Shown: positions 2,640-64,000 of the stretch, piece after piece
Layout of the letters: every line of letters starts with the position of its first letter
Position numbering within the stretch: position 1 is the stretch's first letter
Assembly (NCBI GenBank): GCA_032718475.1
Contig: JAUCBJ010000359.1
Coordinates: forward strand, 1 to 64,000
DNA length: 64,000 bases
Reading direction: 5' to 3'
Source of the DNA: Nemertoderma westbladi
Taxonomy: Eukaryota; Animalia; Xenacoelomorpha
Notes under the pieces: model-generated
What the model was told of the DNA's origin: nothing
Databases searched by the model: none
The model's input: the letters and a program-made list of their open reading frames with translations, nothing else
Program-made: the position numbers and the translations under genes

Positions 2640-2792
2640 TGCAGTTCTGTTCACCGACTCCCTCTGCGCAGTCAGGGTAACCATCGCAATAGAAATGATC
2701 TGGACATTTAGTTGGTGGGCAATCTTTCTTCTGACAGTCGAATGCAGCATTCCGACAATGGCAGTCCTCGCAATCGAAATAGAGAACGCTAC
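2640..2792 (-). CDS. Internal coding exon 1 of 5 seen, vWC/TILa-like motif plus LDLa-like half module
   Basis: Acceptor tactaatattttgccattacag| (2793-2794), donor |GTATGT (2639). 153 bp, phase 1-1. Translates (xGT)SVLYFDCEDCHCRNAAFDCQKKDCPPTKCPDHFYCDGYPDCAEGVGEQNC. An in-frame TAA lies six codons upstream of the acceptor with no ATG in between, so more exons must lie beyond the array. Confidence 0.85.
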
Positions 2793-2814
2793 CTGTAATG
2801 GCAAAATATTAGTA
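2793..2814 (-). promoter_or_regulatory. 3' splice site of exon 2792-2640 (branch-point-like TACTAAT, U-rich tract, CAG)
   Basis: Minus strand reads TACTAATATTTTGCCATTACAG|GT. The CTRAY branch A is at -17 (position 2809). This acceptor gives the frame that joins all downstream exons. Confidence 0.75.
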
Positions 2815-5800
2815 AATTAGAGAACGCTACCTATAAGGCAAAATATTAGTAAAATAGAGAACGCTACCTATAATGGCAAAATATTAGTAAAATAGAGAAC
2901 GCTACCTGTAATGGCAAAATATTAGTAAAATAGAGAACGCTACCTGTAATGGCAAAATATTAGTAAAATAGAGAACGCTACCTATAATGGGAAAATATTA
3001 GTAAAATAGAGAACGCTACCTATAATGGCAAAATATTAGTAAAATAGAGAACGCTACCTATAATGGCAAAATATTAGTAAAATAGAAAACGCTACCTATA
3101 ATGGAAAAATATTAGTAAAATAGAGAACGCTACCTATAATGGCAAAATAATAGTAAAATAGAGAACGCCATAGAATGGCAAAATATTAGTAAAATAGAGA
3201 ACGCTACCTATAATGGCAAAATATTAGTAAAATAGAGAACGCTACCTATAAGGCAAAATATTAGTAAAATAGAGAACGCTACCTGTAATGGCAAAATATT
3301 AGTAAAATAGAGAACGCTACCTATAATGGCAAAATATTTGTAAAATAGAGAACGCTACCTATAATGGCAAAATATTAGTAAAATAGAGAACGCTACCTAT
3401 AATGGCAAAATATTAGTAAAATAGAGAACGCTACCTATAATGGCAAAATAATAGTAAAATAGAGAACGCTACCTATAATGGGAAAATATTAGTAAAATAG
3501 AGAACGCTACCTGTAATGGCCAAATATTAGTAAAATAGAGAACGCTACCTGTAATGGCAAAATATTAGTAAAATAGAGAACGCTACCTGTAATGGCAAAA
3601 TATTAGTAAAATAGAGAACGCTACCTATAATGGGAAAATATTAGTAAAATAGAGAACGCTACCTATAATGGCAAAATATTAGTAAAATAGAGAACGCTAC
3701 CTATAATGGCAAAATATTAGTAAAATAGAAAACGCTACCTATAATGGAAAAATATTAGTAAAATAGAGAACGCTACCTATAATGGCAAAATATTAGTAAA
3801 ATAGAGAACGCTACCTATAATGGCAAAATATTAGTAAAATAGAGAACGCTACCTATAATGGGAAAATATTAGTAAAATAGAGAACGCTACCAATAATGGC
3901 AAAATATTAGTAAAATAGAGAACGCTACCTATAATGGCAAAATAATAGTAAAATAGAGAACGCCATAGAATGGCAAAATATTAGTAAAATAGAGAACGCT
4001 ACCTATAATGGCAAAATATTAGTAAAATAGAGAACGCTACCTATAAGGCAAAATATTAGTAAAATAGAGAACGCTACCTGTAATGGCAAAATATTAGTAA
4101 AATAGAGAACGCTACCTATAATGGCAAAATATTTGTAAAATAGAGAACGCTACCTATAATGGGAAAATATTAGTAAAATAGAGAACGCTACCTATAATGG
4201 CAAAATAATAGTAAAATAGAGAACGCCATAGAATGGCAAAATATTAGTAAAATAGAGAACGCTACCTATAATGGCAAAATATTAGTAAAATAGAGAACGC
4301 TACCTATAAGGCAAAATATTAGTAAAATAGAGAACGCTACCTGTAATGGCAAAATATTAGTAAAATAAAGAACGCTACCTATAATGGCAAAATATTTGTA
4401 AAATAGAGAACGCTACCTATAATGGCAAAATATTAGTAAAATAGAGAACGCTACCTATAATGGCAAAATATTAGTAAAATAGAAAACGCTACCTATAATG
4501 GAAAAATATTAGTAAAATAGAGAACGCTACCTATAATGGCAAAATAATAGTAAAATAGAGAACGCCATAGAATGGCAAAATATTCGTAAAATAGAGAACG
4601 CTACCTATAATGGCAAAATATTAGTAAAATAGAGAACGCTACCTATAATGGCAAAATATTAGTAAAATAGAAAACGCTACCTATAATGGCAAAATATTAG
4701 TAAAATAGAGAACGCTACCTATAAGGCAAAATATTAGTAAAATAGAGAACGCTACCTGTAATGGCAAAATATTAGTAAAATAGAGAACGCTACCTATAAT
4801 GGCAAAATATTCGTAAAACAGAGAACGCTACCTATAAGGCAAAATATTAGTAAAATAGAGAACGCTACCTGTAATGGCAAAATATTAGTAAAATAGAGAA
4901 CGCTACCTATAATGGCAAAATATTCGTAAAATAGAGAACGCTACCTATAATGGGAAAATATTAGTAAAATAGAGAACGCTACCTATAATGGCAAAATATT
5001 AGTAAAATAGAGAACGCTACCTGTAATGGCAAAATAAAAGTAAAATAGAGAACGCCCTAGAATGGCAAAATATTCGTAAAATAGAGAACGCTACCTATAA
5101 TGGGAAAATATTAGTAAAATAGAGAACGCTACCTATAATGGCAAAATATTAGTAAAATAGAGAACGCTACCTATAATGGCAAAATATTAGTAAAATAGAA
5201 AACGCTACCTATAATGGAAAAATATTAGTAAAATAGAGAACGCTACCTATAATGGCAAAATATTAGTAAAATAGAGAACGCTACCTATAATGGCAAAATA
5301 TTAGTAAAATATAGAACGCTACCTATAATGGGAAAATATTAGTAAAATAGAGAACGCTACCTATAATGGCAAAATATTAGTAAAATAGAGAACGCTACCT
5401 ATAATGGCAAAATAATAGTAAAATAGAGAACGCCATAGAATGGCAAAATATTAGTAAAATAGAGAACGCTACCTATAATGGCAAAATATTAGTAAAATAG
5501 AGAACGCTACCTATAAGGCAAAATATTAGTAAAATAGAGAACGCTACCTGTAATGGCAAAATATTAGTAAAATAGAGAACGCTACCTATAATGGCAAAAT
5601 ATTTGTAAAATAGAGAACGCTACCTATAATGGGAAAATATTAGTAAAATAGAGAACGCTACCTATAATGGCAAAATAATAGTAAAATAGAGAACGCCATA
5701 GAATGGCAAAATATTAGTAAAATAGAGAACGCTACCTATAATGGCAAAATATTAGTAAAATATAGAACGCTACCTATAAGGCAAAATATTAGTAAAATAG

Positions 5801-8800
5801 AGAACGCTACCTGTAATGGCAAAATATTAGTAAAATAAAGAACGCTACCTATAATGGCAAAATATTTGTAAAATAGAGAACGCTACCTATAATGGCAAAA
5901 TATTAGTAAAATAGAGAACGCTACCTATAATGGCAAAATATTAGTAAAATAGAAAACGCTACCTATAATGGAAAAATATTAGTAAAATAGAGAACGCTAC
6001 CTATAATGGCAAAATAATAGTAAAATAGAGAGCGCCATAGAATGGCAAAATATTCGTAAAATAGAGAACGCTACCTATAATGGCAAAATATTAGTAAAAT
6101 AGAGAACGCTACCTATAATGGCAAAATATTAGTAAAATAGAGAACGCAACCTATAATGGGAAAATAATAGTAAAATAGAGAGCGCCATAGAATGGCAAAA
6201 TATTCGTAAAATAGAGAACGCTACCTATAATGGCAAAATATTAGTAAAATAGAAAACGCTACCTATAATGGCAAAATATTAGTAAAATAGAGAACGCTAC
6301 CTATAAGGCAAAATATTAGTAAAATAGAGAACGCTACCTGTAATGGCAAAATATTAGTAAAATAGAGAACGCTACCTATAATGGCAAAATATTAGTAAAA
6401 TAGAGAACGCTACCTATAAGGCAAAATATTAGTAAAATAGAGAACGCTACCTGTAATGGCAAAATATTAGTAAAATAGAGAACGCTACCTATAATGGCAA
6501 AATATTCGTAAAATAGAGAACGCTACCTATAATGGGAAAATATTAGTAAAATAGAGAACGCTACCTATAATGGCAAAATATTAGTAAAATAGAGAACGCT
6601 ACCTGTAATGGCAAAATAAAAGTAAAATAGAGAACGCCATAGAATGGCAAAATATTCGTAAAATAGAGAACGCTACCTATAATGGGAAAATATTAGTAAA
6701 ATAGAGAACGCTACCTATAATGGCAAAATATTAGTAAAATAGAGAACGCTACCTATAATGGCAAAATATTAGTAAAATAGAAAACGCTACCTATAATGGA
6801 AAAATATTAGTAAAATAGAGAATGCTACCTATAATGGCAAAATAATAGTAAAATAGAGAACGCTACCTATAATGGGAAAATATTAGTAAAATAGAGAACG
6901 CTACCTATAATGGCAAAATATTAGTAAAATAGAGAACGCTACCTATAATGGCAAAATATTAGTAAAATAGAGAACGCTACCTATAATGGCAAAATAATAG
7001 TAAAATAGAGAACGCTACCTATAATGGGAAAATATTAGTAAAATAGAGAACGCTACCTATAATGGCAAAATATTAGTAAAATAGAGAACGCTACCTATAA
7101 GGCAAAATATTAGTAAAATAGAGAACGCTACCTAGTAATGGCAAAATATTAGTAAAATAGAGAACGCTACCTATAATGGGAAAATATTAGTAAAATAGAG
7201 AACGCTACCTATAATGGCAAAATATTAGTAAAATAGAGAACGCTACCTATAATGGCAAAATAATACAGTAGTAAAATAGAGAACGCCATAGAATGGCAAA
7301 ATATTAGTAAAATAGAGAACGCTACCTATAATGGCAAAATATTAGTAAAATAGAGAACGCTACCTATAAGGCAAAATATTAGTAAAATAGAGAACGCTAC
7401 CTGTAATGGCAAAATATTAGTAAAATAAAGAACGCTACCTATAATGGCAAAATATTTGTAAAATAGAGAACGCTACCTATAATGGCAAAATATTAGTAAA
7501 ATAGAGAACGCTACCTATAATGGCAAAATATTAGTAAAATAGAAAACGCTACCTATAATGGAAAAATATTAGTAAAATAGAGAACGCTACCTATAATGGC
7601 AAAATAATAGTAAAATAGAGAGCGCCATAGAATGGCAAAATATTCGTAAAATAGAGAACGCTACCTATAATGGCAAAATATTAGTAAAATAGAGAACGCT
7701 ACCTATAATGGCAAAATATTAGTAAAATAGAGAACGCAACCTATAATGGGAAAATAATAGTAAAATAGAGAGCGCCATAGAATGGCAAAATATTCGTAAA
7801 ATAGAGAACGCTACCTATAATGGCAAAATATTAGTAAAATAGAAAACGCTACCTATAATGGCAAAATATTAGTAAAATAGAGAACGCTACCTATAAGGCA
7901 AAATATTAGTAAAATAGAGAACGCTACCTGTAATGGCAAAATATTAGTAAAATAGAGAACGCTACCTATAATGGCAAAATATTAGTAAAATAGAGAACGC
8001 TACCTATAAGGCAAAATATTAGTAAAATAGAGAACGCTACCTGTAATGGCAAAATATTAGTAAAATAGAGAACGCTACCTATAATGGCAAAATATTCGTA
8101 AAATAGAGAACGCTACCTATAATGGGAAAATATTAGTAAAATAGAGAACGCTACCTATAATGGCAAAATATTAGTAAAATAGAGAACGCTACCTGTAATG
8201 GCAAAATAAAAGTAAAATAGAGAATGCCATAGAATGGCAAAATATTCGTAAAATAGAGAACGCTACCTATAATGGGAAAATATTAGTAAAATAGAGAACG
8301 CTACCTATAATGGCAAAATATTAGTAAAATAGAGAACGCTACCTATAATGGCAAAATATTAGTAAAATAGAAAACGCTACCTATAATGGAAAAATATTAG
8401 TAAAATAGAGAATGCTACCTATAATGGCAAAATAATAGTAAAATAGAGAACGCTACCTATAATGGGAAAATATTAGTAAAATAGAGAACGCTACCTATAA
8501 TGGCAAAATATTAGTAAAATAGAGAACGCTACCTATAATGGCAAAATATTAGTAAAATAGAGAACGCTACCTGTAATGGCAAAATATTAGTAAAATAGAG
8601 AACGCTACCTGTAATGGCAAAATAATAGTAAAATAGAGAACACTACCTATAATGGCAAAATAATAGTAAAATAGAGAACGCTACCTATAATGGGAAAATA
8701 TTAGTAAAATAGAGAACGCTACCTATAATGGCAAAATATTAGTAAAATAGAGAACGCTACCTATAAGGCAAAATATTAGTAAAATAGAGAACGCTACCTG

Positions 8801-44800: not shown

Positions 44801-45450
44801 GAGAACGCTACCTATAATGGCAAAATATTAGTAAAATAGAGAACGCTACCTATAATGGGAAAATATTAGTAAAATAGTGAACGCTACCTATAATGGGAAA
44901 ATATTAGTAAAATAGAGAACGCTACCTATAATGGCAAAATATTAGTAAAATAGAGAACGCTACCTATAATGGCAAAATAATAGTAAAATAGAGAACGCTA
45001 CCTATAATGGGAAAATATTAGTAAAATAGAGAACGCTACCTATAATGGGAAAATATTAGTCAAATAGAGAACGCTACCTATAATGGCAAAATATTAGTAA
45101 AATAGAGAACGCTACCTATAATGGCAAAATAATAGTAAAAATGAGAACGCTACCTATAATGGCAAAATATTAGTAAAATAGAGAACGCTACCTATAATGG
45201 CAAAATAATAGTAAAATAGAGAACGCTACCTATAATGGGAAAATATTAGTAAAATAGAGAACGCTACCTATAATGGCAAAATATTAGTAAAATAGAGAAC
45301 GCTACCTATAAGGCAACCTATAAGGCAAAATATTAGTAAAATAGAGAACGCTACCTATAATGGGAAAATATTAGTAAAATAGAGAACGCTACCTATAATG
45401 GCAAAATATTAGTAAAATAGAGAACGCTACCTATAAGGCAAAATATTACT

Positions 45451-48400
45451 AAAATAGAACAGAAAATATAAAATATTTGTAAAATAGAGAACGCTACCTA
45501 TAATGGGAAAATATTAGTAAAATAGAGAACGCTACATATAAGGCAAAATATTAGTAAAATAGAGAACGCTACCTATAATGGGAAAATATTAGTAAAATAG
45601 AGAACGCTACCTATAAGGCAAAATATTAGTAAAATAAAGAACGCTACCTATAATGGGAAAATATTAGTAAAATAGAGAACACTATATAATGGCAAAATAT
45701 TAGTAAAATAGAGAACGCTACCTATAATGGGAAAATATTAGTAAAATAGAGAACGCTACCTATAATGGGAAAATATTAGTAAAATAGAGAACGCTACCTG
45801 TAATGGCAAAATATTAGTAAAATAGAGAACGCTACCTGTAATGGCAAAATAATAGTAAAATAGAGAACGCTACCTATAATGGCAAAATAATAGTAAAATA
45901 GAGAACGCTACCTATAAGGCAAAATATTAGTAAAATAAAGAACGCTACCTATAATGGGAAAATATTAGTAAAATAGAGAACACTATATAATGGCAAAATA
46001 TTAGTAAAATAGAGAACGCTACCTATAATGGGAAAATATTAGTAAAATAGAGAACGCTACCTATAATGGGAAAATATTAGTAAAATAGAGAACGCTACCT
46101 GTAATGGCAAAATATTAGTAAAATAGAGAACGCTACCTGTAATGGCAAAATAATAGTAAAATAGAGAACGCTACCTATAATGGCAAAATAATAGTAAAAT
46201 AGAGAACGCTACCTATAAGGCAAAATATTAGTAAAATAGAGAACGCTACCTATAAAGGGAAAATATTAGTAAAATAGAGAACGCTACCTATAATGGGAAA
46301 ATATTAGTAAAATAGAGAACGCTACCTATAATGGGAAAATATTAGTAAAATAGAGAACGCTACCTATAAGGCAAAATATTAGTAAAATAGAGAACGCTAC
46401 CTATAATGGCAAAATATTAGTAAAATAGAGAACGCTACCTATAATGGCAAAATAATAGTAAAATAGAGAACGCTACCTATAATGGGAAAATATTAGTAAA
46501 ATAGAGAACGCTACCTATAATGGGAAAATATTAGTCAAATAGAGAACGCTACCTATAATGGCAAAATATTAGTAAAATAGAGAACGCTACCTATAATGGC
46601 AAAGTAATAGTAAAAAAGAGAATGCTACCTATAATGGCAAAATATTAGTAAAATAGAGAACGCTACCTATAATGGCAAAATAATAGTAAAATAGAGAACG
46701 CTACCTATAATGGGAAAATATTAGTAAAATAGAGAACGCTACCTATAATGGCAAAATATTAGTAAAATAGAGAACGCTACCTATAAGGCAACCTATAAGG
46801 CAAAATATTAGTAAAATAGAGAACGCTACCTATAATGGGAAAATATTAGTAAAATAGAGAATGCTACCTATAATGGCAAAATATTAGTAAAATAGAGAAC
46901 GCTACCTATAAGGCAAAATATTACTAAAATAGAACAGAAAATATAAAATATTTGTAAAATAGAGAACGCTACCTATAATGGGAAAATATTAGTAAAATAG
47001 AGAACGCTACCTATAAGGCAAAATATTAGTAAAATAGAGAACGCTACCTATAATGGGAAATTATTAGTAAAATAGAGAACGCTACCTATAAGGCAAAATA
47101 TTAGTAAAATAGAGAACGCTACCTATAATGGGAAAATATTAGTAAAATAGAGAACACTATATAATGGCAAAATATTAGTAAAATAGAGAACGCTACCTAT
47201 AATGGGAAAATATTAGTAAAATAGAGAACGCTACCTATAATGGGAAAATATTAGTAAAATAGATAACGCTACCTATAAGGCAAAATATTAGTAAAATAGA
47301 GAACGCTACCTATAAAGGGAAAATATTAGTAAAATAGAGAACGCTACCTATAATGGGAAAATATTAGTAAAATAGAGAACGCTACCTATAATGGGAAAAT
47401 ATTAGTAAAATAGAGAACGCTACCTATAAGGCAAAATATTAGTAAAATAGAGAACGCTACCTATAAAGGGAAAATATTAGTAAAATAGAGAACGCTACCT
47501 GTAATGGCAAAATATTAGTAAAATAGAGAACGCTACCTATAAAGGGAAAATATTAGTAAAATAGAGAACGCTACCTGTAATGGCAAAATAATAGTAAAAT
47601 CGAGAACGCTACCTGTAATGGCAAAATATTAGTAAAATAGAGAACGCTACCTATAAGGCAAAATATTACTAAAATAGAGAACGCTACCTATAATGGGAAA
47701 ATATTAGTAAAATAGTGAACGCTACCTATAATGGGAAAATATTAGTAAAATAGTGAACGCTACCTATAATGGGAAAATATTAGTAAAATAGTGAACGCTA
47801 CCTATAATGGGAAAATATCAGTAAAATAGTGAACGCTACCTGTAATGGCAAAATATTAGTAAAATAGAGAACGCTACCTGTAATGGCAAAATATTAGTAA
47901 AATAGAGAACGCTACCTATAATGGGAAAATATTAGTAAAATAGAGAACGCTACCTATAAGGCAAAATATTACTAAAATAGAGAACGCTATATAATGGGAA
48001 AATATTAGTAAAATAGAGAATGCTACCTATAATGGGAAAATATTAGTAAAATAGAGAACGCTACCTATAAGGCAAAATATTAGTAAAATAGAGAACGCTA
48101 CCTATAAGGCAAAATATTACTAAAATAGAACAGAAAATATAAAATATTTGTAAAATAGAGAACGCTACCTATAAGGCAAAATATTACTAAAATAGAACAG
48201 AAAATATAAAATATTTGTAAAATAGAGAATGCTACCTATAATGGGAAAATATTAGTAAAATAGAGAACGCTACCTATAATGCAAAATATTACTAAAATAG
48301 AACAGAAAATATAAAATATTTGTAAAATAGAGAACGCTACCTATAAGGCAAAATATTACTAAAATAGAACAGAAAATATAAAATATTTGTAAAATAGAGA

Positions 48401-51400
48401 ACGCTACCTATAAGGCAAAATATTACTAAAATAGAACAGAAAATATAAAATATTTGTAAAATAGAGAACGCTACCTATAAGGCAAAATATTACTAAAATA
48501 GAACAGAAAATATAAAATATTAGTAAAATAGAGAACGCTACCTATAATGGGAAAATATTAGTAAAATAGAGAACGCTACCTATAAGGCAAAATATTTGTA
48601 AAATAGAGAACGCTACCTATAATGGGAAAATATTAGTAAAATAGAGAACACTATATAATGGCAAAATATTAGTAAAATAGAGAACGCTACCTATAATGGG
48701 AAAATATTAGTAAAATAGAGAACACTATATAATGGCAAAATATTAGTAAAATAGAGAATGCTACCTATAATGTCAAAATATTAGTAAAATAGAGAACGCT
48801 ACCTATAAGGCAAAATATTAGTAAAATAGAGAACGCTACCTATAATGGGAAAATATTAGTAAAATAGAGAACACTACCTATAATGGGAAAATATTAGTAA
48901 AATAGAGAACGCTACCTATAAGGCAAAGTATTAGTAAAATAGAGAACGCTACCTATAATGGCAAAATATTAGTAAAATAGAGAACGCTACCTATAATGGG
49001 AAAACATTTGTAAAATAGAGAACGCTACCTATAAGGCAAAATATTAGTAAAATAGAGAACACTATATAATGGCAAAATATTAGTAAAATAGAGAACGCTA
49101 CCTATAATGGGAAAATATTAGTAAAATAGAGAACACTATATAATGGCAAAATATTAGTAAAATAGAGAATGCTACCTATAATGGCAAAATATTAGTAAAA
49201 TAGAGAACGCTACCTATAAGGCAAAATATTAGTAAAATAGAGAACGCTACCTATAAGGCAAAATATTAGTAAAATAGAGAACGCTACCTATAATGGGAAA
49301 ATATTAGTAAAATAGAGAACGCTACCTATTAGGCAAAATATTAGTAAAATAGAGAACGCTACCTATAATGGGAAAATATTAGTAAAATAGAGAACGCTAC
49401 CTATAATGGCAAAATATTAGTAAAATAGAGAACGCTATATAATGGTGAAATATTAGTAAAATAGAGAACGCTACCTATAATGGGAAAATATTACTAAAAT
49501 AGAACAGAAAATATAAAATATTTGTAAAATAGAGAACGCTACCTATAATGGGAAAATATTAGTAAAATAGAGAACGCTACCTATAAGGCAAAATATTAGT
49601 AAAATAGAGAACGCTACCTATAATGGGAAAATATTAGTAAAATAGAGAACGCTACCTATAAGGCAAAATATTACTAAAATAGAACAGAAAATATAAAATA
49701 TTTGTAAAATAGAGAACGCTATATAATGGCAAAATATTAATAAAATAGAGAATGCTACCTATAATGGCAAAATATTAGTAAAATAGAGAATGCTACCTAT
49801 AAGGCAAAATATTAGTAAAATAGAGAACGCTACCTATAAGGCAAAATATTAGTAAAATAGAGAACGCTACCTATAATGGGAAAATATTAGTAAAATAGAG
49901 AACGCTACCTATAAGGCAAAATATTAGTAAAATAGAGAACGCTACCTATAATGGGAAAATATTAGTAAAATAGTGAACGCTACCTATAAGGCAAAATATT
50001 AGTAAAATAGAGAACGCTACCTATAATGGGAAAATATTAGTAAAATAGAGAACGCTACCTATAAGGCAAAATATTACTAAAATAGAACAGAAAATATAAA
50101 ATATTTGTAAAATAGAGAACGCTACCTATAATGGGAAAATATTAGTAAAATAGTGAACGCTACCTATAAGGCAAAATATTTGTAAAATAGAGAACGCTAC
50201 CTATAAGGCAAAATATTACTAAAATAGAACAGAAAATATAAAATATTTGTAAAATAGAGAACGCTACCTATAATGGGAAAATATTAGTAAAATAGAGAAC
50301 GCTACCTATAAGGCAAAATATTACTAAAATAGAACAGAAAATATAAAATATTTGTAAAATAGAGAACGCTACCTATAAGGCAAAATATTACTAAAATAGA
50401 ACAGAAAATATAAAATATTTGTAAAATAGAGAACGCTACCTATATGGCAAAATATTACTAAAATAGAACAGAAAATATAAAATATTTGTAAAATAGAGAA
50501 CGCTACCTATAAGGCAAAATATTAGTAAAATATAGAACGCTACCTATAATGGCAAAATATTAGTAAAATAGTGAACGCTACCTATAAGGCAAAATATTTG
50601 TAAAATAGAGAACGCTACCTATAAGGCAAAATATTACTAAAATAGAACAGAAAATATAAAATATTTGTAAAATAGAGAACGCTACCTATAATGGGAAAAT
50701 ATTAGTAAAATAGAGAACGCTACCTATAAGGCAAAATATTACTAAAATAGAACAGAAAATATAAAATATTTGTAAAATAGAGAACGCTACCTATAAGGCA
50801 AAATATTACTAAAATAGAACAGAAAATATAAAATATTTGTAAAATAGAGAACGCTACCTATAAGGCAAAATATTACTAAAATAGAACAGAAAATATAAAA
50901 TATTTGTAAAATAGAGAACGCTACCTATAAGGCAAAATATTACTAAAATAGAACAGAAAATATAAAATATTTGTAAAATAGAGAACGCTACCTATAAGGC
51001 AAAATATTACTAAAATAGAACAGAAAATATAAAATATTTGTAAAATAGAGAACGCTACCTATAATGGGAAAATATTAGTAAAATAGAGAACGCTACCTAT
51101 AATGGCGAAATATTAGTAAAATTGTGAACGCTACCTATAAGGCAAAATATTAGTAAAATATAGAACGCTACCTATAATGGCAAAATATTAGTAAAATAGA
51201 GAATGCTACCTATAAGGCAAAATATTAGTAAAATAGAGAACGCTACCTATAATGGGAAAATATTAGTAAAATAGTGAACGCTACCTATAAGGCAAAATAT
51301 TAGTATAATAGAGAACGCTACCTATAATGGGAAAATATTAGTAAAATAGAGAACGCTACCTATAAGGCAAAATATTACTAAAATAGAACAGAAAATATAA

Positions 51401-54400
51401 AATATTTGTAAAATAGAGAACGCTACCTATAATGGGAAAATATTAGTAAAATAGTGAACGCTACCTATAAGGCAAAATATTTGTAAAATAGAGAACGCTA
51501 CCTATAAGGCAAAATATTACTAAAATAGAACAGAAAATATAAAATATTTGTAAAATAGAGAACGCTACCTATAATGGGAAAATATTAGTAAAATAGAGAA
51601 CGCTACCTATAAGGCAAAATATTACTAAAATAGAACAGAAAATATAAAATATTTGTAAAATAGAGAACGCTACCTATAAGGCAAAATATTACTAAAATAG
51701 AACAGAAAATATAAAATATTTGTAAAATAGAGAACGCTACCTATAAGGCAAAATATTACTAAAATAGAACAGAAAATATAAAATATTTGTAAAATAGAGA
51801 ACGCTACCTATAAGGCAAAATATTAGTAAAATATAGAATGCTACCTATAATGGCAAAATATTAGTAAAATAGTGAACGCTACCTATAAGGCAAAATATTT
51901 GTAAAATAGAGAACGCTACCTATAAGGCAAAATATTACTAAAATAGAACAAAAAATATAAAATATTTGTAAAATAGAGAACGCTACCTATAATGGGAAAA
52001 TATTAGTAAAATAGAGAACGCTACCTATAAGGCAAAATAATACTAAAATAGAACAGAAAATATAAAATATTTGTAAAATAGAGAACGCTACCTATAAGGC
52101 AAAATATTACTAAAATAGAACAGAAAATATAAAATATTTGTAAAATAGAGAACGCTACCTATAAGGCAAAATATTACTAAAATAGAACAGAAAATATAAA
52201 ATATTTGTAAAATAGAGAACGCTACCTATAAGGCAAAATATTACTAAAATAGAACAGAAAATATAAAATATTTGTAAAATAGAGAACGCTACCTATAAGG
52301 CAAAATATTACTAAAATAGAACAGAAAATATAAAATATTTGTAAAATAGAGAATGCTACCTATAATGGGAAAATATTAGTAAAATAGAGAACGCTACCTA
52401 TAATGGCAAAATATTAGTAAAATAGTGAACGCTACCTATAAGGCAAAATATTAGTAAAATATAGAACGCTACCTATAATGGCAAAATATTAGTAAAATAG
52501 TGAATGCTACCTATAAGGCAAAATATTAGTAAAATAGAGAACGCTACCTATAATGGGAAAATATTAGTAAAATAGAGAACGCTACCTATAAGGCAAAATA
52601 TTACTAAAATAGAACAGAAAATATAAAATATTTGTAAAATAGAGAACGCTACCTATAATGGGAAAATATTACTAAAATAGAACAGAAAATATAAAATATT
52701 TGTAAAATAGAGAACGCTACCTATAATGGGAAAATATTAGTAAAATAGAGAACGCTACCTATAATGGCAAAATATTAGTAAAATAGTGAACGCTACCTAT
52801 AAGGCAAAATATTAGTAAAATATAGAACGCTACCTATAATGGCAAAATATTAGTAAAATAGTGAACGCTACCTGTAAGGCAAAATATTTGTAAAATAGAG
52901 AACGCTACCTATAAGGCAAAATATTACTAAAATAGAACAGAAAATATAAAATATTTGTAAAATAGAGAACGCTACCTATAATGGGAAAATATTAGTAAAA
53001 TAGAGAACGCTACCTATAAGGCAAAATATTACTAAAATAGAACAGAAAATATAAAATATTTGTAAAATAGAGAACGCTACCTATAAGGCAAAATATTACT
53101 AAAATAGAACAGAAAATATAAAATATTTGTAAAATAGAGAACACTACCTATAATGGGAAAATATTAGTAAAATAGAGAACGCTACCTATAAGGCAAAATA
53201 TTACTAAAATAGAACAGAAAATATAAAATAATTGTAAAATAGAGAACGCTACCTATAATGGGAAAATATTAGTAAAATAGAGAACGCTACCTATAAGGGA
53301 AAATATTACTAAAATAGAACAGAAAATATAAAATATTTGTAAAATAGAGAACGCTCCCTATAAGGCAAAATATTACTAAAATAGAACAGAAAATATAAAA
53401 TATTTGTAAAATAGAGAACGCTACCTATAATGGGAAAATATTAGTAAAATAGAGAACGTTACCTATAAGGCAAAATATTACTAAAATAGAACAGAAAATA
53501 TAAAATATTTGTAAAATAGAGAACGCTACCTATAAGGCAAAATATTACTAAAATAGAACAGAAAATATAAAATATTTGTAAAATAGAGAACGCTACCTAT
53601 AAGGCAAAATATTACTAAAATAGAACAGAAAATGTAAAATATTTGTTAAATAGAGAACGCTACCTATAAGGCAAAATATTACTAAAATAGAACAGAAAAT
53701 ATAAAATATTTGTAAAATAAAGAACGCTACCTATAAGGCAAAGTATTACTAAAATAGAACAGAAAATATAAAATATTTGTAAAATAGAGAACGCTACCTA
53801 TAATGGGAAAATATTAGTAAAATAGAGAACGCTACCTATAATGGCAAAATATTAGTAAAATAGCGAACGCTACCTATAAGGCAAAATATTACTAAAATAG
53901 AACAGAAAATATAAAATATTTGTAAAATAGAGAATGCTACCTTTGGGAAAATATTAGTAAAATAGAGAACGCTACCTATAAGGCAAAATATTACTAAAAT
54001 AGAACAGAAAATATAAAATATTTGTAAAATAGAGAACGCTACCTATAAGGCAAAATATTACTAAAATAGAACAGAAAATATAAAATATTTGTAAAATAGA
54101 GAACGCTACCTATAAGGCAAAATATTACTAAAATAGAACAGAAAATATAAAATATTTGTAAAATAGAGAACGCTACCTATAAGGCAAAATATTAGTAAAA
54201 TATAGAATGCTACCTATAATGGCAAAATATTAGTAAAATAGTGAACGCTACCTATAAGGCAAAATATTTGTAAAATAGAGAACGCTACCTATAAGGCAAA
54301 ATATTACTAAAATAGAACAAAAAATATAAAATATTTGTAAAATAGAGAACGCTACCTATAATGGGAAAATATTAGTAAAATAGAGAACGCTACCTATAAG

Positions 54401-57400
54401 GCAAAATAATACTAAAATAGAACAGAAAATATAAAATATTTGTAAAATAGAGAACGCTACCTATAAGGCAAAATATTACTAAAATAGAACAGAAAATATA
54501 AAATATTTGTAAAATAGAGAACGCTACCTATAAGGCAAAATATTACTAAAATAGAACAGAAAATATAAAATATTTGTAAAATAGAGAACGCTACCTATAA
54601 GGCAAAATATTACTAAAATAGAACAGAAAATATAAAATATTTGTAAAATAGAGAACGCTACCTATAAGGCAAAATATTACTAAAATAGAACAGAAAATAT
54701 AAAATATTTGTAAAATAGAGAACGCTACCTATAATGGGAAAATATTAGTAAAATAGAGAACGCTACCTATAATGGCAAAATATTAGTAAAATAGTGAACG
54801 CTACCTATAAGGCAAAATATTAGTAAAATATAGAACGCTACCTATAATGGCAAAATATTAGTAAAATAGTGAATGCTACCTATAAGGCAAAATATTAGTA
54901 AAATAGAGAACGCTACCTATAATGGGAAAATATTAGTAAAATAGAGAACGCTACCTATAAGGCAAAATATTACTAAAATAGAACAGAAAATATAAAATAT
55001 TTGTAAAATAGAGAACGCTACCTATAATGGGAAAATATTACTAAAATAGAACAGAAAATATAAAATATTTGTAAAATAGAGAACGCTACCTATAATGGGA
55101 AAATATTAGTAAAATAGAGAACGCTACCTATAATGGCAAAATATTAGTAAAATAGTGAACGCTACCTATAAGGCAAAATATTAGTAAAATATAGAACGCT
55201 ACCTATAATGGCAAAATATTAGTAAAATAGTGAACGCTACCTGTAAGGCAAAATATTTGTAAAATAGAGAAAGCTACCTATAAGGCAAAATATTACTAAA
55301 ATAGAACAGAAAATATAAAATATTTGTAAAATAGAGAACGCTACCTATAATGGGAAAATATTAGTAAAATAGAGAACGCTACCTATAAGGCAAAATATTA
55401 CTAAAATAGAACAGAAAATATAAAATATTTGTAAAATAGAGAACGCTACCTATAAGGCAAAATATTACTAAAATAGAACAGAAAATATAAAATATTTGTA
55501 AAATAGAGAACACTACCTATAATGGGAAAATATTAGTAAAATAGAGAACGCTACCTATAAGGCAAAATATTACTAAAATAGAACAGAAAATATAAAATAT
55601 TTGTAAAATAGAGAACGCTACCTATAATGGGAAAATATTAGTAAAATAGAGAACGCTACCTATAAGGGAAAATATTACTAAAATAGAACAGAAAATATAA
55701 AATATTTGTAAAATAGAGAACGCTACCTATAAGGCAAAATATTACTAAAATAGAACAGAAAATATAAAATATTTGTAAAATAGAGAACGCTACCTATAAT
55801 GGAAAAATATTAGTAAAATAGAGAACGTTACCTATAAGGCAAAATATTACTAAAATAGAACAGAAAATATAAAATATTTGTAAAATAGAGAACGCTACCT
55901 ATAAGGCAAAATATTACTAAAATAGAACAGAAAATATAAAATATTTGTAAAATAGAGAACGCTACCTATAAGGCAAAATATTACTAAAATAGAACAGAAA
56001 ATATAAAATATTTGTAAAATAGAGAACGCTACCTATAAGGCAAAATATTACTAAAATAGAACAGAAAATATAAAATATTTGTTAAATAGAGAACGCTACC
56101 TATAAGGCAAAATATTACTAAAATAGAACAGAAAATATAAAATATTTGTAAAATAGAGAACGCTACCTATAATGGGAAAATATTAGTAAAATAGAGAACG
56201 CTACCTATAATGGCAAAATATTAGTAAAATAGTGAACGCTACCTATAAGGCAAAATAATACTAAAATAGAACAGAAAATATAAAATATTTGTAAAATAGA
56301 GAACGCTACCTATAAGGCAAAATATTACTAAAATAGAACAGAAAATATAAAATATTTGTAAAATAGAGAACGCTACCTATAAGGCAAAATATTACTAAAA
56401 TAGAACAGAAAATATAAAATATTTGTTAAATAGAGAACGCTACCTATAAGGCAAAATATTACTAAAATAGAACAGAAAATATAAAATATTTGTAAAATAG
56501 AGAACGCTACCTATAATGGGAAAATATTAGTAAAATAGAGAACGCTACCTATAATGGCAAAATATTAGTAAAATAGTGAACGCTACCTATAAGGCAAAAT
56601 AATACTAAAATAGAACAAAAAATATAAAATATTTGTAAAATAGAGAACGCTACCTATAATGGGAAAATATTAGTAAAATAGAGAACGCTACCTATAAGGC
56701 AAAATAATACTAAAATAGAACAGAAAATATAAAATATTTGTAAAATAGAGAACGCTACCTATAAGGCAAAATATTACTAAAATAGAACAGAAAATATAAA
56801 ATATTTGTAAAATAGAGAACGCTACCTATAAGGCAAAATATTACTAAAATAGAACAGAAAATATAAAATATTTGTAAAATAGAGAACGCTACCTATAAGG
56901 CAAAATATTACTAAAATAGAACAGAAAATATAAAATATTTGTAAAATAGAGAACGCTACCTATAAGGCAAAATATTACTAAAATAGAACAGAAAATATAA
57001 AATATTTGTAAAATAGAGAACGCTACCTATAATGGGAAAATATTAGTAAAATAGAGAACGCTACCTATAATGGCAAAATATTAGTAAAATAGTGAACGCT
57101 ACCTATAAGGCAAAATATTAGTAAAATATAGAACGCTACCTATAATGGCAAAATATTAGTAAAATAGTGAATGCTACCTATAAGGCAAAATATTAGTAAA
57201 ATAGAGAACGCTACCTATAATGGGAAAATATTAGTAAAATAGAGAACGCTACCTATAAGGCAAAATATTACTAAAATAGAACAGAAAATATAAAATATTT
57301 GTAAAATAGAGAACGCTACCTATAATGGGAAAATATTACTAAAATAGAACAGAAAATATAAAATATTTGTAAAATAGAGAACGCTACCTATAATGGGAAA

Positions 57401-60400
57401 ATATTAGTAAAATAGAGAACGCTACCTATAATGGCAAAATATTAGTAAAATAGTGAACGCTACCTATAAGGCAAAATATTAGTAAAATATAGAACGCTAC
57501 CTATAATGGCAAAATATTAGTAAAATAGTGAACGCTACCTGTAAGGCAAAATATTTGTAAAATAGAGAACGCTACCTATAAGGCAAAATATTACTAAAAT
57601 AGAACAGAAAATATAAAATATTTGTAAAATAGAGAACGCTACCTATAATGGGAAAATATTAGTAAAATAGAGAACGCTACCTATAAGGCAAAATATTACT
57701 AAAATAGAACAGAAAATATAAAATATTTGTAAAATAGAGAACGCTACCTATAAGGCAAAATATTACTAAAATAGAACAGAAAATATAAAATATTTGTAAA
57801 ATAGAGAACACTACCTATAATGGGAAAATATTAGTAAAATAGAGAACGCTACCTATAAGGCAAAATATTACTAAAATAGAACAGAAAATATAAAATATTT
57901 GTAAAATAGAGAACGCTACCTATAATGGGAAAATATTAGTAAAATAGAGAACGCTACCTATAAGGGAAAATATTACTAAAATAGAACAGAAAATATAAAA
58001 TATTTGTAAAATAGAGAACGCTACCTATAAGGCAAAATATTACTAAAATAGAACAGAAAATATAAAATATTTGTAAAATAGAGAACGCTACCTATAATGG
58101 AAAAATATTAGTAAAATAGAGAACGTTACCTATAAGGCAAAATATTACTAAAATAGAACAGAAAATATAAAATATTTGTAAAATAGAGAACGCTACCTAT
58201 AAGGCAAAATATTACTAAAATAGAACAGAAAATATAAAATATTTGTAAAATAGAGAACGCTACCTATAAGGCAAAATATTACTAAAATAGAACAGAAAAT
58301 ATAAAATATTTGTAAAATAGAGAACGCTACCTATAAGGCAAAATATTACTAAAATAGAACAGAAAATATAAAATATTTGTTAAATAGAGAACGCTACCTA
58401 TAAGGCAAAATATTACTAAAATAGAACAGAAAATATAAAATATTTGTAAAATAGAGAACGCTACCTATAATGGGAAAATATTAGTAAAATAGAGAACGCT
58501 ACCTATAATGGCAAAATATTAGTAAAATAGTGAACGCTACCTATAAGGCAAAATATTAGTAAAATATAGAACGCTACCTATAATGGCAAAATATTAGTAA
58601 AATAGTGAATGCTACCTATAAGGCAAAATATTAGTAAAATAGAGAACGCTACCTATAATGGGAAAATATTAGTAAAATAGAGAACGCTACCTATAATGGC
58701 AAAATATTAGTAAAATAGTGAACGCTACCTATAAGGCAAAATATTAGTAAAATATAGAACGCTACCTATAATGGCAAAATATTAGTAAAATAGTGAACGC
58801 TACCTGTAAGGCAAAATATTTGTAAAATAGAGAACGCTACCTATAAGGCAAAATATTACTAAAATAGAACAGAAAATATAAAATATTTGTAAAATAGAGA
58901 ACGCTACCTATAATGGGAAAATATTAGTAAAATAGAGAACGCTACCTATAAGGCAAAATATTACTAAAATGGAACAGAAAATATAAAATATTTGTAAAAT
59001 AGAGAACGCTACCTATAAGGCAAAATATTACTAAAATAGAACAGAAAATATAAAATATTTGTAAAATAGAGAACACTACCTATAATGGGAAAATATTAGT
59101 AAAATAGAGAACGCTACCTATAAGGCAAAATATTACTAAAATAGAACAGAAAATATAAAATCTTTGTAAAATAGAGAACGCTACCTATAATGGGAAAATA
59201 TTAGTAAAATAGAGAACGCTACCTATAAGGCAAAATATTACTAAAATAGAACAGAAAATATAAAATATTTGTAAAATAGAGAACGCTACCTATAAGGCAA
59301 AATATTACTAAAATAGAACAGAAAATATAAAATATTTGTAAAATAGAGAACGCTACCTATAAGGCAAAATATTACTAAAATAGAACAGAAAATATAAAAT
59401 ATTTGTAAAATAGAGAACGCTACCTATAAGGCAAAATATTACTAAAATAGAACAGAAAATATAAAATATTTGTAAAATAGAGAACGCTACCTATAATGGG
59501 AAAATATTAGTAAAATAGAGAACGCTACCTATAAGGCAAAATATTACTAAAATAGAACAGAAAATATAAAATATTTGTAAAATAGAGAACGCTACCTATA
59601 AGGCAAAATATTACTAAAATAGAACAGAAAATATAAAATATTTGTAAAATAGAGAACGCTACCTATAATGGGAAAATATTAGTAAAATAGAGAACGCTAC
59701 CTATAAGGCAAAATATTACTAAAATAGAGAACGCTACCTATAATGGGAAAATATTAGTAAAATAGAGAACGCTACCTATAAGGCAAAATATTAGTAAAAT
59801 AGAGAACGCTACCTATAATGGGAAAATATTAGTAAAATAGAGAACACTATATAATGGCAAAATATTAGTAAAATAGAGAACGCTACCTATAATGGGAAAA
59901 TATTAGTAAAATAGAGAACGCTACCTATAATGGGAAAATATTAGTAAAATAGAGAATGCTACCTATAAGGCAAAATATTAGTAAAATAGAGAACGCTACC
60001 TATAAAGGCAAAATATTAGTCAAATAGAGAACGCTACCTATAAAGGGAAAATATTAGTAAAATAGAGAACGCTACCTATAATGGGAAAATATTAGTAAAA
60101 TAGAGAACGCTACCTATAATGGGAAAATATTAGTAAAATAGAGAACGCTACCTATAAGGCAAAATATTAGTAAAATAGAGAACGCTACCTATAAAGGAAA
60201 AATATTAGTAAAATAGAGAACGCTACCTGTAATGGCAAAATATTAGTAAAATAGAGAACGCTACCTATAAAGGGAAAATATTAGTAAAATAGAGAACGCT
60301 ACCTGTAATGGCAAAATAATAGTAAAATCGAGAACGCTACCTGTAATGGCAAAATATTAGTAAAATAGAGAACGCTACCTATAAGGCAAAATATTACTCA

Positions 60401-60570
60401 AATAGAACAGAAAATATAAAATATTTGTAAAATAGAGAACGCTACCTATAAGGCAAAATATTACTAAAATAGAACAGAAAATATAAAATATTTGTAAAAT
60501 AGAGAACGCTACCTATAAGGCAAAATATTACTAAAATAGAACAGAAAATATAAAATATTTGTAAAATAGA
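45451..60570. repeat. 67-bp composite subfamily domain (37-bp monomer plus 30-bp AAAATAGAACAGAAAATATAAAATATTTGT)
   Basis: The module first appears at 45451 and is frequent from about 48.1 to 60.6 kb; period 67 measured (48122 to 48189). Confidence 0.9.
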
Positions 60571-63345
60571 GAACGCTACCTATAATGGGAAAATATTAGT
60601 AAAATAGAGAACGCTACCTATAAGGCAAAATATTAGTAAAATAGAGAACGCTACCTATAATTGGAAAATATTAGTAAAATAGAGAACGCTACCTATAAGG
60701 CAAAATATTAGTAAAATAGAGAACGCTACCTATAATGGGAAAATATTAGTAAAATAGAGAACACTATATAATGGCAAAATATTAGTAAAATAGAGAACGC
60801 TACCTATAATGGGAAAATATTAGTAAAATAGAGAACGCTACCTATAATGGGAAAATATTAGTAAAATAGAGAACGCTACCTATAAGGCAAAATATTAGTA
60901 AAATAGAGAACGCTACCTATAAAGGCAAAATATTAGTCAAATAGAGAACGCTACCTATAAAGGGAAAATATTTGTAAAATAGAGAACGCTACCTATAATG
61001 GGAAAATATTAGTAAAATAGAGAACGCTACCTATAATGGGAAAATATTAGTAAAATAGAGAACGCTACCTATAAGGCAAAATATTAGTAAAATAGAGAAC
61101 GCTACCTATAAAGGGAAAATATTAGTAAAATAGAGAACGCTACCTGTAATGGCAAAATATTAGTAAAATAGAGAACGCTACCTATAAAGGGAAAATATTA
61201 GTAAAATAGAGAACGCTACCTGTAATGGCAAAATAATAGTAAAATCGAGAACGCTACCTGTAATGGCAAAATATTAGTAAAATATAGAACGCTACCTATA
61301 AGGCAAAATATTACTAAAATAGAGAATGCTACCTATAATGGGAAAATATTAGTAAAATAGTGAACGCTACCTATAATGGGAAAATATTAGTAAAATAGTG
61401 AACGCTACCTATAATGGGAAAATATTAGTAAAATAGTGAACGCTACCTATAATGGGAAAATATTAGTAAAATAGTGAACGCTACCTGTAATGGCAAAATA
61501 TTAGTAAAATAGAGAACGCTACCTGAAATGGCAAAATATTAGTAAAATAGAGAACGCTACCTATAATGGGAAAATATTAGTAAAATAGAGAACGCTACCT
61601 ATAAGGCAAAATATTACTAAAATAGAGAACGCTATATAATGGGAAAATATTAGTAAAATAGAGAATGCTACCTATAATGGGAAAATATTAGTAAAATAGA
61701 GAACGCTACCTATAAGGCAAAATATTACTAAAATAGAGAACGCTACCTATAATGGGAAAATATTAGTAAAATAGTGAGCGCTACCTATAATGGGAAAATA
61801 TTAGTAAAATAGTGAACGCTACCTATAATGGGAAAATATTAGTAAAATAGTGAACGCTACCTATAATGGGAAAATATTAGTAAAATAGTGAACGCTACCT
61901 GTAATGGCAAAATATTAGTAAAATAGAGAACGCTACCTGTAATGGCAAAATATTAGTAAAATAGAGAACGCTACCTATAATGGGAAAATATTAGTAAAAT
62001 AGAGAACGCTACCTATAAGGCAAAATATTACTAAAATAGAGAACGCTATATAATGGGAAAATATTAGTAAAATAGTGAACGCTACCTATAATGGCAAAAT
62101 ATTAGTAAAATAGAGAATGCTACCTATAATGGCAAAATAATAGTAAAAAAGAATAGAAAATATAAAATATTTGTAAAATAGAGAACGCTACCTGTAATGG
62201 CAAAATATTAGTAAAATAGAGAACGCTACCTATAATGGGAAAATATTAGTAAAATAGTGAACGCTACCTATAATGGGAAAATATTAGTAAAATAGTGAAC
62301 GCTACCTATAATGGGAAAATATTAGTAAAATAGTGAACGCTACCTATAATGGGAAAATATTAGTAAAATAGTGAACGCTACCTGTAATGGCAAAATATTA
62401 GTAAAATAGAGAACGCTATATAATGGGAAAATATTAGTAAAATAGTGAACGATACCTATAATGGCAAAATATTAGTAAAATAGAGAATGCTATAGAATGG
62501 GAAAATATTAGTAAAATAGTGAACGCTACCTATAATGGCAAAATAATAGTAAAAAAGAATAGAAAATATAAAATATTTGTAAAATAGTGAACGCTACCTG
62601 TAAAGGCAAAATATTAGTAAAATAGAGAACGCTACCTATAATGGGAAAATATTAGTAAAATAGAGAACGCTACCTATAAGGCAAAATATTAGTAAAATAG
62701 AGAACGCTATATAATGGGAAAATACTAGTAAAATAGTGAACGCTACCTATAATGGCAAAATATTAGTAAAATAGAGAACGCTACCTATAAGGCAAAATAT
62801 TAGTAAAATAGAGAACGCTACCTATAATGGGAAAATATTAGTAAAATAGAGAACGCTACCTATAAGGCAAAATAATACTAAAATAGAGAACGCTATATAA
62901 TGGGAAAATATTAGTAAAATAGTGAACGCTACCTATAATGGCAAAATATTAGTAAAATAGAGAACGCTACCTATAATGGCAAAATAATAGTAAAAAAGAA
63001 TAGAAAATATAAAATATTTGTAAAATAGAGAATGCTACCTGTAATGGCAAAATATTAGTAAAATAGAGAACGCTACCTATAATGGGAAAATATTAGTAAA
63101 ATGGAGAACGCTACCTATAAGGCAAAATATTAGTAAAATAGAGAACGCTATATAATGGGAAAATATTAGTAAAATAGTGAACGCTACCTATAATGGCAAA
63201 ATATTAGTAAAATAGAGAACGCTACCTATAATGGGAAAATATTAGTAAAATAGAGAACGCTACCTATAAGGCAAAATATTAGTAAAATAGAGAACGCTAC
63301 CTATAATGGGAAAATATTAGTAAAATAGAGAACGCTACCTATAAT

Positions 63346-64000
63346 CGACCCTTTTGCTAACTCAGTAATCAGACAGTCATGAGCCAGTCACAATCAGTAG
63401 TTAATAGGCATGTGTCCGGTCCTAATGCGGGTACCGGTGCAGGAGAACCCAGTAACAGGCGTGAGAGTTCTGGTAATACCACACCGGTTATTTCTGATAA
63501 CTTATTGGATGCAAATATGTGTAGACCCGACGGTGGCAATGTTATGGACACCAGTAGTACAGATGGTACCGGCCTCGAGAATTGTTTAACCAACTCCTCC
63601 TGGGCCGGGTCAACTCCAGGTGAACCGGTACCGGTAGTTGTAAATACGTGTTTGTCTTTTGCACTGCAATGTTTTTCTAATTCAGTATTTGGAATCGGTA
63701 GTACTGCCTGCCTGAAGCGTTTCTCTCCTGAGCAGATTTGGGCATCCAAGGTTCTATTATTTAACAAGTGTCTGGGATCAAGTTCGGACTTGATCAATAG
63801 GCGAGATACTGCTGAACGTTCAGCTGCAGAAGCTAATGTCAAAGACATATGGGATAAGATTCGCGATCTCGATCGAGCGGGTAAGTTACCCCTAATAGCG
63901 GTGGATGCATTGGATGCTTTATCGCTTCCATCGTTTCCGATTACGAATGATTCAGATAGTGTAAATCAGGCAGATCAGTCAGCGGGTTTCTCTATGATTG
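63346..64000 (+). mobile_element. 5' end of a probable non-LTR retrotransposon (LINE, CR1/L2/Jockey-group-like) abutting or inserted in the satellite
   Basis: Abrupt switch mid-monomer (...CCTATAAT|CGACCC) to higher-GC unique sequence carrying an intronless ORF1-like reading frame, antisense to the host gene. Confidence 0.65.
63379..64000 (+). CDS. Partial ORF (at least 207 aa, open at the window end) resembling invertebrate LINE ORF1 N-terminal domain
   Basis: ATG at 63379 follows an in-frame TAA (63358), with no stop up to 64000. After a low-complexity S/G/T N-terminus it reads VVNTCLSFALQCFSNS...ACLKRFSPEQIWASKVLLFNKC...RRDTAERSAAEANVKDIWDKIRDLDRAGKLPLIAVDALDALSLP. This fits, from memory, the N-x-x-L...F-x-x-E-x-I-x-x-A/S-K-x-x-L...RR...DI...P...LP pattern of the ORF1 family often mis-annotated as 'mutant cadherin'. 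Not database-verified. Confidence 0.7.
   Translation, partial: MSQSQSVVNRHVSGPNAGTGAGEPSNRRESSGNTTPVISDNLLDANMCRPDGGNVMDTSSTDGTGLENCLTNSSWAGSTPGEPVPVVVNTCLSFALQCFSNSVFGIGSTACLKRFSPEQIWASKVLLFNKCLGSSSDLINRRDTAERSAAEANVKDIWDKIRDLDRAGKLPLIAVDALDALSLPSFPITNDSDSVNQADQSAGFSMI

Follow-up and report, generated by a model that had tools for sequence, protein, structure and literature searches.

A single tandem array with a period of 38 bp, arranged head to tail, occupies 60.6 kb of the minus strand (positions 2777-63345) of the window, the whole 64-kb stretch of Nemertoderma westbladi DNA that was analysed. Its unit consists of 22 nt of acceptor-like sequence joined to the first 16 nt of a predicted exon, exon A, into which the last copy of the array continues unbroken. 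The array probably belongs with the mirage repeats of lancelets, in giant form. It is fairly probable, judging from the sequence, that it arose in situ by duplication of an intron/exon border followed by expansion, and that the last copy would likely be the only one used by the spliceosome. The original prediction had described a 60-kb satellite of about 1,500 tandem acceptors, with a unit of about 22 nt of intron end and about 16 nt of exon start. The count came to 1,520 units, 1,396 of them with a terminal YAG acceptor (the presumed real one included), and the anatomy was the same, the border being predicted. The origin in situ that was claimed with it is the best reading and likely. It matches the described class of mirages, a class absent from the original prediction.

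The array was delimited by its periodicity and by unit counts, 1,521 anchors giving the 1,520 units, which fell into 203 unit types. Units of 38 nt (n = 1,161) were accompanied by units of 37 nt (n = 133), 36 nt (n = 109) and 67-68 nt (n = 107), and unit lengths marked out a distal sub-domain (48074-63345, minus strand) rich in the 67-68 nt variant. Within the array 93.7% of 1-kb words were unique, and the longest exact repeat measured 2,548 nt. The units ended in AG in 1,400 of 1,520 cases (92%; CAG, n = 167; TAG, n = 1,231), TACTAAT and the terminal YAG were both kept in 1,057 of the 1,520, and 72 array positions were identical to the terminal 38-nt junction. The GC content was 28%, compared with 48% in the 153-nt exon A. 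Mutational silencing of the decoys was considered and rejected, given the retention of AG. A coding role of the array was also rejected, since the longest open stretch was only 73 codons. A mismatch gradient along the array was set aside, as the comparison was ungapped and inflated by the 37- and 67-nt units.

Five exons were predicted on the minus strand downstream of the array. Exon A (2640-2792; 153 nt, phase 1-1) is LDLa-like by Pfam (E 0.018) and phmmer and has a GTATGT donor. Exon B (1971-2087; 117 nt, phase 1-1) encodes an LDLa domain (Pfam E 3.1e-06), exon C (1327-1526; 200 nt, phase 1-0) is LDLa-like (Pfam E 7.8e-05), and exon D (592-734; 143 nt, phase 0-2; Pfam and ORF) supplies the rest of the LDLa begun in exon C. 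Exon E (289-443; 155 nt, phase 2-1), predicted from its ORF, is Cys-rich and had no Pfam match. At the curated PF00057 cut-off of 24.1 bits exon B passed (27.7 bits), and exons A, C and D matched below it. From 2792 to 289 the five exons join in phase into 255 codons with zero stops, with the GT-AG ends kept. Motif, phase and frame point to position 2792 as the start of exon A, and the LDLa homology begins about 23 nt inside this exon, past the 16 nt shared with the unit. The claim that the last copy runs into a coding exon agrees with this LDLa-like, phase 1-1 predicted exon at 2792-2640. The further claim that the downstream exons are intact and in frame holds for the stop-free chain of five, but 13 of the 38 possible end points of the unit would be in frame and two LDLa Asp residues are lost.

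A phmmer search of 1.84 billion representative proteins returned three matches. The only credible one was P0001, a VLDLR-like LDLa repeat protein of amphioxus (E 8e-12), which is no orthologue; the other two, P0002 and P0003, look like repeat or composition matches. The search for an orthologue of exon A among longer proteins gave no candidate, and the search via exon C gave one candidate and nothing significant. ARAGORN and Rfam returned 0 matches on the exon flank.

The terminal junction unit (2777-2814, minus strand) comprises TACTAAT with the branch A at -17, a T-rich tract, CAG and 16 exon nt, and is the presumed template of the array. In the unit bearing the presumed real acceptor (2793-2830, minus strand), CAG is combined with a second CTAAT motif at -25, a post hoc observation. 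This second branch-point motif was absent from the 200 nearest decoys, again post hoc. Throughout the array a second branch point was found at 68 of 1,396 acceptors and together with CAG at 17 of 1,396, the presumed real one included. There are 2,945 YAGs in the array, and only the last reads stop-free to the 2640 donor in phase 1. Exons of at most 300 nt would be produced from the four nearest acceptors, the presumed real one included, and all three decoys in this group are intact, so that proximity alone may not exclude decoys.

The unit junctions also carry AG|GT, with 1,266 occurrences of YAG|GTAGCG in the array. The U1 pairing of these junction donors was -6.4 kcal/mol (TAG type) and -8.0 kcal/mol (CAG type), within the range of the five predicted gene donors (-3.7 to -9.2 kcal/mol), and pseudo-exons within the array are therefore possible. 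The idea that the array is without a usable donor was rejected for this comparable pairing. A G at +5 was present in only 9 of 3,112 array GT sites, compared with 5 of 5 predicted gene donors, and GTAAG, GTGAG and GTATGT did not occur in the array.

An initial 38-nt duplication across the intron/exon border may have given rise to a small mirage, which unequal exchange or slippage would have enlarged; variant blocks recurring at many scales fit such growth. In an intron of more than 61 kb, an acceptor would be committed only when paired across the short exon with the donor and with exon sequence. The last copy would be favoured as the sole copy followed by the full 153-nt exon and the nearest to the 2640 donor, and also for its CAG and better-placed second branch point. 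We consider it likely, from these sequence features, that the last copy is chosen by cross-exon definition. Cross-exon proximity matters under long introns, and in human data the overall upstream preference among 3' splice sites is merely reduced under exon definition (PMC9225289). Splicing to a decoy would be expected to introduce a premature stop, because all YAGs but the last lead into one, and nonsense-mediated decay would then clear the mis-spliced RNA. Decoy use would thus cost yield without giving rise to a wrong protein. Most likely the array has no function and is tolerated.

Lancelet mirages are described in the globin genes BflGb6 (3' end of the intron plus 5' part of exon 2) and BflGb9, in Adh3 and in troponin C in the available part of PMC3087553, and PGBD5, Adh and TnC mirages appear also in the available part of PMC3902484. 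Like the array, they are head-to-tail copies of a border lying beside the real border, with AG/GT kept in many. The lancelet units evolve in concert, and the lancelet copy number varies between haplotypes. Several of the features that define a mirage were found here as well: the array is tandem within a gene, its 38-bp unit lies within the range of 10-160 bp and keeps the splice signals, the unit spans the predicted border, and the end copy is that border by sequence, phase and frame. The scale differs: the array reaches 1,520 units and 60.6 kb, whereas BflGb6 has 6 and 3 units, each of 150-160 bp. Moreover, the BflGb6 mirage is spliced normally by RT-PCR according to the same part of PMC3087553, whereas normal splicing across the array is a prediction.

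Human junction VNTRs, as given in the available part of PMC1557585, include F7 IVS7 (37 bp, 5-9 copies), CBS IVS13 (15-20), LMNB2 (10-15), PDGF (16-18) and an interferon-inducible gene with 25 pseudo-sites; splicing uses the site adjoining the exon or those closest to it. As in the array, the unit extends across an exon border, and its splice site recurs in identical form. The human VNTRs repeat donors downstream of the exon, whereas the array repeats acceptors upstream, so that transcription would pass its decoys before reaching the real site. At typical polymerase speeds, 60 kb of decoy acceptors correspond to 15-60 minutes of transcription before the real acceptor is reached. Drosophila Y fertility genes share with the array giant satellite-filled introns in coding genes (PMC11207136, PMC6508613, each in its available part), but those introns are described simply as satellite-filled, whereas the unit of the array is the gene's own predicted acceptor. 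Recursive splice sites likewise juxtapose an acceptor and GT within introns of more than 40 kb (available part of PMC6110457); the array differs in having about 1,270 such junctions at 38-nt spacing, without +5 G and identical to the exon start. Because the class of junction repeats is known, the structure of the array is no discovery in itself. The published junction repeats (lancelet mirages and human VNTRs) have 3-26 copies in the portions of those sources available, and the novelty of the array is its size, about 60 times the largest published example found (26 sites). No larger printed case was found in the literature search, which had most subscription journals outside its scope and in which the word 'mirages' turned up with this meaning in only two papers.

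Contigs from other samples were compared with the window. X1 and X2 are from two other studies, and X3 is from the same sample as X1. The exon contig covers 2370-2806 in X1 and X2 and 2527-2806 in X3, and breaks 30 nt into the unit. The ratio of unit depth to single-copy depth was about 1,300-1,900 in X1 and about 4,000-4,800 in X2, rough values in that summed contig depth is not copy number; on this same measure, which is not a copy number, it was only 11-48 in X3. Two variant words taken from X1/X2 contigs recur in the window, 79 and 97 times. An assembly artefact and a dispersed genome-wide satellite had been named as readings that would overturn the original prediction. Since the X1 and X2 contigs hold the exon and about 10^3 unit copies, the array is real and not an artefact of assembly. 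Since the total depth in X1 and X2 is, by this rough measure, about 10^3 single-copy equivalents, or about one array, the unit is not a major genome-wide satellite. Contigs fitting only partly numbered 3 of 182 and 2 of 72, a weak test of dispersal given that flank contigs overlap the unit by about 30 nt; among the matches listed, this comparison did not detect the known exon junction itself. X5 covered neither exon nor unit and is no evidence of absence, and a metagenome scan for the unit gave 0 matches.

The window allele differs from X1-X3 at two exonic positions. Position 2654 in exon A lies in a Gly codon in place of Asp, and position 2013 in exon B in an Asn codon in place of Asp, so that both differences (2 of 2) are losses of a canonical Asp of the LDLa CDG and DE motifs. 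We take the Asp residues of these acidic motifs to be calcium ligands. The differences from X1 were 2 of 454 in exons and 16 of 1,154 in introns (p 0.12, not significant).

The losses of Asp would suit a mirage in a gene or allele that is dead or nearly silent, where the array either grew unchecked or killed the allele. A young antisense element at the far end of the array, with no bridge between the two among the X1/X2 pieces listed, points the same way, as does the retention of AG in 92% of units, which gives no sign of selection to silence the decoys. We nevertheless regard a dead or silent allele as rather unlikely, in view of the GT-AG ends, phases and open frame kept by all five exons and of the X1 and X2 arrays, which are similar or larger by depth and yet belong to alleles with both Asp residues. 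The lower number of exonic than intronic differences also speaks against it, although not significantly. Assembly expansion of a short repeat to 60 kb would account for the low unit depth in X3, but it is highly improbable with 10^3-fold depth in X1 and X2, from two studies, and with 203 types of unit and 1-kb words that are for the most part unique. It is very improbable that the acceptor was supplied by chance by an unrelated satellite that entered the intron end or took its place, the first 16 exon bases then being satellite-derived. In-frame continuity would be cheap for such a satellite, as noted for the 13 of 38 end points, the LDLa homology starts past the shared 16 nt, and 2,685 of 20,000 units of shuffled composition (13%) gave a valid in-frame acceptor under a loose rule with no branch point. 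When a branch point was included, however, only 559 of 20,000 (2.8%; YTRAY) or 115 of 20,000 (0.6%; CTAAY) passed, 0 of 38 antisense rotations gave a valid acceptor, and both the total depth of about one array and the few partly fitting contigs (the weak test) argue against a dispersed family.

Gain of a new intron through tandem duplication of an AG|GT segment lying entirely within an exon (the Rogers model, cited in the available part of PMC3087553) would explain the AG|GT at every junction. It is scarcely credible and was rejected: the branch-point motif of the 22-nt part, retained by most units, includes an in-frame TAA, and this part is therefore not coding, so that the unit is not wholly exonic; moreover, no LDLa coding sequence was found upstream of the first copy within the 64-kb window. 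An active part of the array in splicing was also weighed, whether by recursive correction to the last copy or by multi-unit poison exons that tune output via decay, with the nascent RNA also loading many U2/U2AF/U1 complexes. The YAG|GTAGCG junctions with their U1 pairing in the gene-donor range lend themselves to this, recursive sites are AG/GT motifs present in most fly introns of more than 40 kb (PMC6110457, in its available part), and snRNPs gather on a chicken tandem-repeat RNA that has many predicted donors (10.64898/2026.03.19.712899). We find it quite improbable because the +5 G shared by all five predicted gene donors is nearly absent from the array, because the exon side of a post-splice donor would come from an upstream exon beyond the window, and because the same GT opens the real exon, where a strong donor would cause skipping. 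Similarly doubtful is the combined reading in which an expressed gene is spliced correctly over 1,400 to several thousand intact copies of its acceptor and AG|GT serves as a dense ratchet (recursive correction or decay). In that case the length of the array would act as a heritable dial for the output of the gene, and its 60-kb nascent RNA would be a sponge that holds U2/U2AF/U1 at the locus.

Under the favoured reading of a tolerated mirage, the array illustrates how the duplication of a 38-bp junction can lead to tandem repeats of satellite scale with blocks of higher order. Expression of the gene would make the array a natural test of whether commitment to a 3' splice site is delayed until exon definition, with alleles that differ in array length forming a dose series. 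If the gene is silent, the array would be a large but ordinary mirage.

The far end of the array does not show a clean in-situ boundary. The upstream end at 63345 adjoins a 16-nt spacer (63346-63361) without a match in the unit or in the copy that X1/X2 have of the element beyond it, and the array there starts 15 nt later in the unit than expected of an intact in-situ array. The element (63362-64000, plus strand) was recognised by contig depth and by an ORF antisense to the host gene, and is low-copy, with about 4-5 near-identical copies; it cuts the far end of the array. Its ORF is open from 63379 to the window end. This ORF had no Pfam match, and a protein search gave 492 candidates, none significant; by its appearance the element may resemble ORF1 of a CR1/L2-type LINE.

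By its testable features the locus is a mirage, a junction minisatellite that copies an intron/exon border and is known from lancelets, and its sequence predicts that it would work like one. Apart from short flanks, a single array fills the window. Its limits by Tandem Repeats Finder are 2777-63345, with a period of 38 and 88% matches, and cutting it at an anchor yielded 1,520 units that fall into 203 types; 1,161 units have a length of 38 nt. Read on the minus strand, 1,410 of the 1,520 units begin with GT, 1,400 end in AG (167 CAG, 1,231 TAG), and 1,057 carry both TACTAAT and a terminal YAG. The last copy contributes 16 nt and is followed by unique sequence, forming a predicted 153-nt exon. 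The original prediction had described a 60-kb array whose unit joins an intron end to the start of the exon, with the last copy running into that exon, and this description proved accurate. Within the array, 93.7% of 1-kb words are unique, no exact repeat is longer than 2,548 nt, and variant blocks recur at many scales. The far end of the array is a domain of a 67-nt variant unit.

Normal splicing is a defining feature of mirages; at this locus it is a prediction from sequence. The array exceeds the published junction-repeat cases considered here by one to two orders of magnitude; human donor-side junction repeats have 5-26 sites (PMC1557585). No larger printed copy counts were found by literature search, which did not reach the original Adh3 paper or Zhuo 2007, so that larger counts are possible. 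What is new is the size, from minisatellite to satellite, the kind itself being already known. If the gene is expressed, this is a striking and testable case; if not, it is ordinary.

An assembly artefact and a major genome-wide satellite were considered as explanations of the array. Of six listed runs, none of them RNA, three contain the flank. Contigs from four of the six were compared over 960-2870, and from two of the six over 63255-63700. In X1 and X2, runs from two studies, and likewise in X3, from the sample of X1, a single-copy contig spans 2370-2806 and breaks off 30 nt into the unit, as would a graph branch at a repeat. Single-copy depth was about 25-35 in X1 and 24-27 in X2, peak unit depth was 46,000-50,000 and 107,000-113,000, and the ratio was about 1,300-1,900 and 4,000-4,800, respectively. 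Since summed contig depth is not a copy number, and the ratio in X3 was just 11-48, these ratios are usable as an order of magnitude only. Unit depth in X1 and X2 fits about one array like that of the window. At this order of magnitude, the depth argues against an assembly artefact, a refuting outcome that the original prediction had itself named, and against a major genome-wide satellite.

Five exons were predicted on the minus strand: A (2792-2640; phase 1-1, GTATGT donor), B (2087-1971; 1-1), C (1526-1327; 1-0), D (734-592; 0-2) and E (443-289; 2-1). Joined in phase, they give 255 codons with 45 Cys and no stops. Pfam matched LDL-receptor class A (LDLa) in four of the five, with exon B alone exceeding the curated cut-off. 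The best protein match of exon A was an amphioxus VLDLR-like LDLa repeat protein; the similarity begins ~23 nt inside the exon, and the predicted exon start is therefore without homology support. Exons A and B hold one module each, and the phase-0 intron between exons C and D divides one LDLa module.

The array does run continuously and in frame into exon A as originally claimed, but this is weak evidence because 13 of 38 possible end points of the unit would also give an in-frame, stop-free acceptor. None of the 38 antisense rotations did. Of 20,000 shuffled units, 2,685 satisfied a loose acceptor rule; when a branch-point motif was also required, 559 did so with YTRAY and 115 with CTAAY. The predicted acceptor/exon match thus appears partly beyond chance.

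AG positions were variable in <1% of 38-nt units, and the predicted decoys, the upstream acceptor copies, are not disabled by sequence change. The array has 2,945 YAG triplets, of which the final one alone is stop-free in phase 1 as far as the donor at 2640, and 889 of 1,400 unit-end decoys reach a stop after 11 codons. Since every YAG but the last meets a stop, RNA spliced at decoys would become a substrate for decay. Exons of ≤300 nt would result from just 4 of the unit-end acceptors. In human data, long introns favour the splice sites that lie nearest across the exon, although for 3' sites the overall preference for upstream positions is only reduced (PMC9225289).

The presumed real acceptor has CAG (167 of 1,396 acceptors) and a second CTAAT at -25 in addition to one at -17. 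A second branch-point motif occurs in 68 of 1,396 acceptors and in 0 of the 200 nearest decoys, and the combination in 17 of 1,396, a distinction observed post hoc. Chance may account for it, or the edge unit may have escaped homogenisation, as has been reported for the lancelet globin gene BflGb6 (PMC3087553). The unit with this acceptor (2793-2830) is of a rare type: 16 of 1,396 acceptors show the identical 38 nt. Copies elsewhere are located at 17.6-37.2 kb, with none in the nearest 14 kb.

Pairing energies used the U1 5' end sequence. The AG/GT junctions pair with U1 at -6.4 or -8.0 kcal/mol, inside the range of the five predicted gene donors (-3.7 to -9.2), so that their use as poison pseudo-exons or recursive splice sites would be possible. 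However, the +5 G common to all five donors is found at just 9 of 3,112 array GT sites. Recursive splice sites and repeat RNA gathering snRNPs are treated in PMC6110457 and 10.64898/2026.03.19.712899, respectively.

At its far end the array begins 7 nt ahead of a unit end, whereas an intact in-situ duplication predicts another point. Beyond lie 16 nt of unrelated sequence and then an element from 63362, with a plus-strand ORF from 63379 that we take to resemble a CR1/L2 LINE ORF1; Pfam and protein searches with the ORF did not confirm this identity. A single contig represents the element in X1 and X2; its depth is 4-5 times that of single-copy sequence, and it shows 1 difference in 339 nt. This contig extends past 63362 into 73 different letters, and the array-element junction is bridged by none among the 16 X1/X2 pieces listed (239 others were not listed). 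Probably, then, only the window allele carries this insertion, and both the upstream exon and the point where the array truly starts fall beyond the window; the predicted intron would be longer than 61 kb. The element, low-copy (about 4-5) and near-identical, was probably inserted recently, at the array or into it, and is probably polymorphic.

The window differs from X1 at 2 of 454 exonic and 16 of 1,154 intronic sites (p 0.12). Across exons A-C, the window departs from X1-X3 at just two exonic positions, with Gly at 2654 and Asn at 2013 where X1-X3 have Asp. These positions lie in the DE and CDG motifs of LDLa, and amphioxus repeats carry Asp at both. The Asp losses may mean that the window allele is decaying, or they may be variants that are tolerated or errors of assembly. 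That X1 and X2 combine both Asp with large unit counts argues for the compatibility of a big array with intact exons.

Dispersed short repeats occur at ~990-1100, 1590-1700 and 1711-1796; in X1-X3 and a further run, X5, they reach thousands of times single-copy depth and show many loose ends. The stretch 1746-1796 resembles a tRNA-derived SINE head; ARAGORN and Rfam returned zero matches here. A 15-bp minisatellite (822-953; 8.8 copies, 99% matches) of no evident splice-site origin lies in the C-D intron. A 22-bp tandem repeat at 1-46 (2.1 perfect copies) extends off the window start and may belong to a further array, in the next intron.
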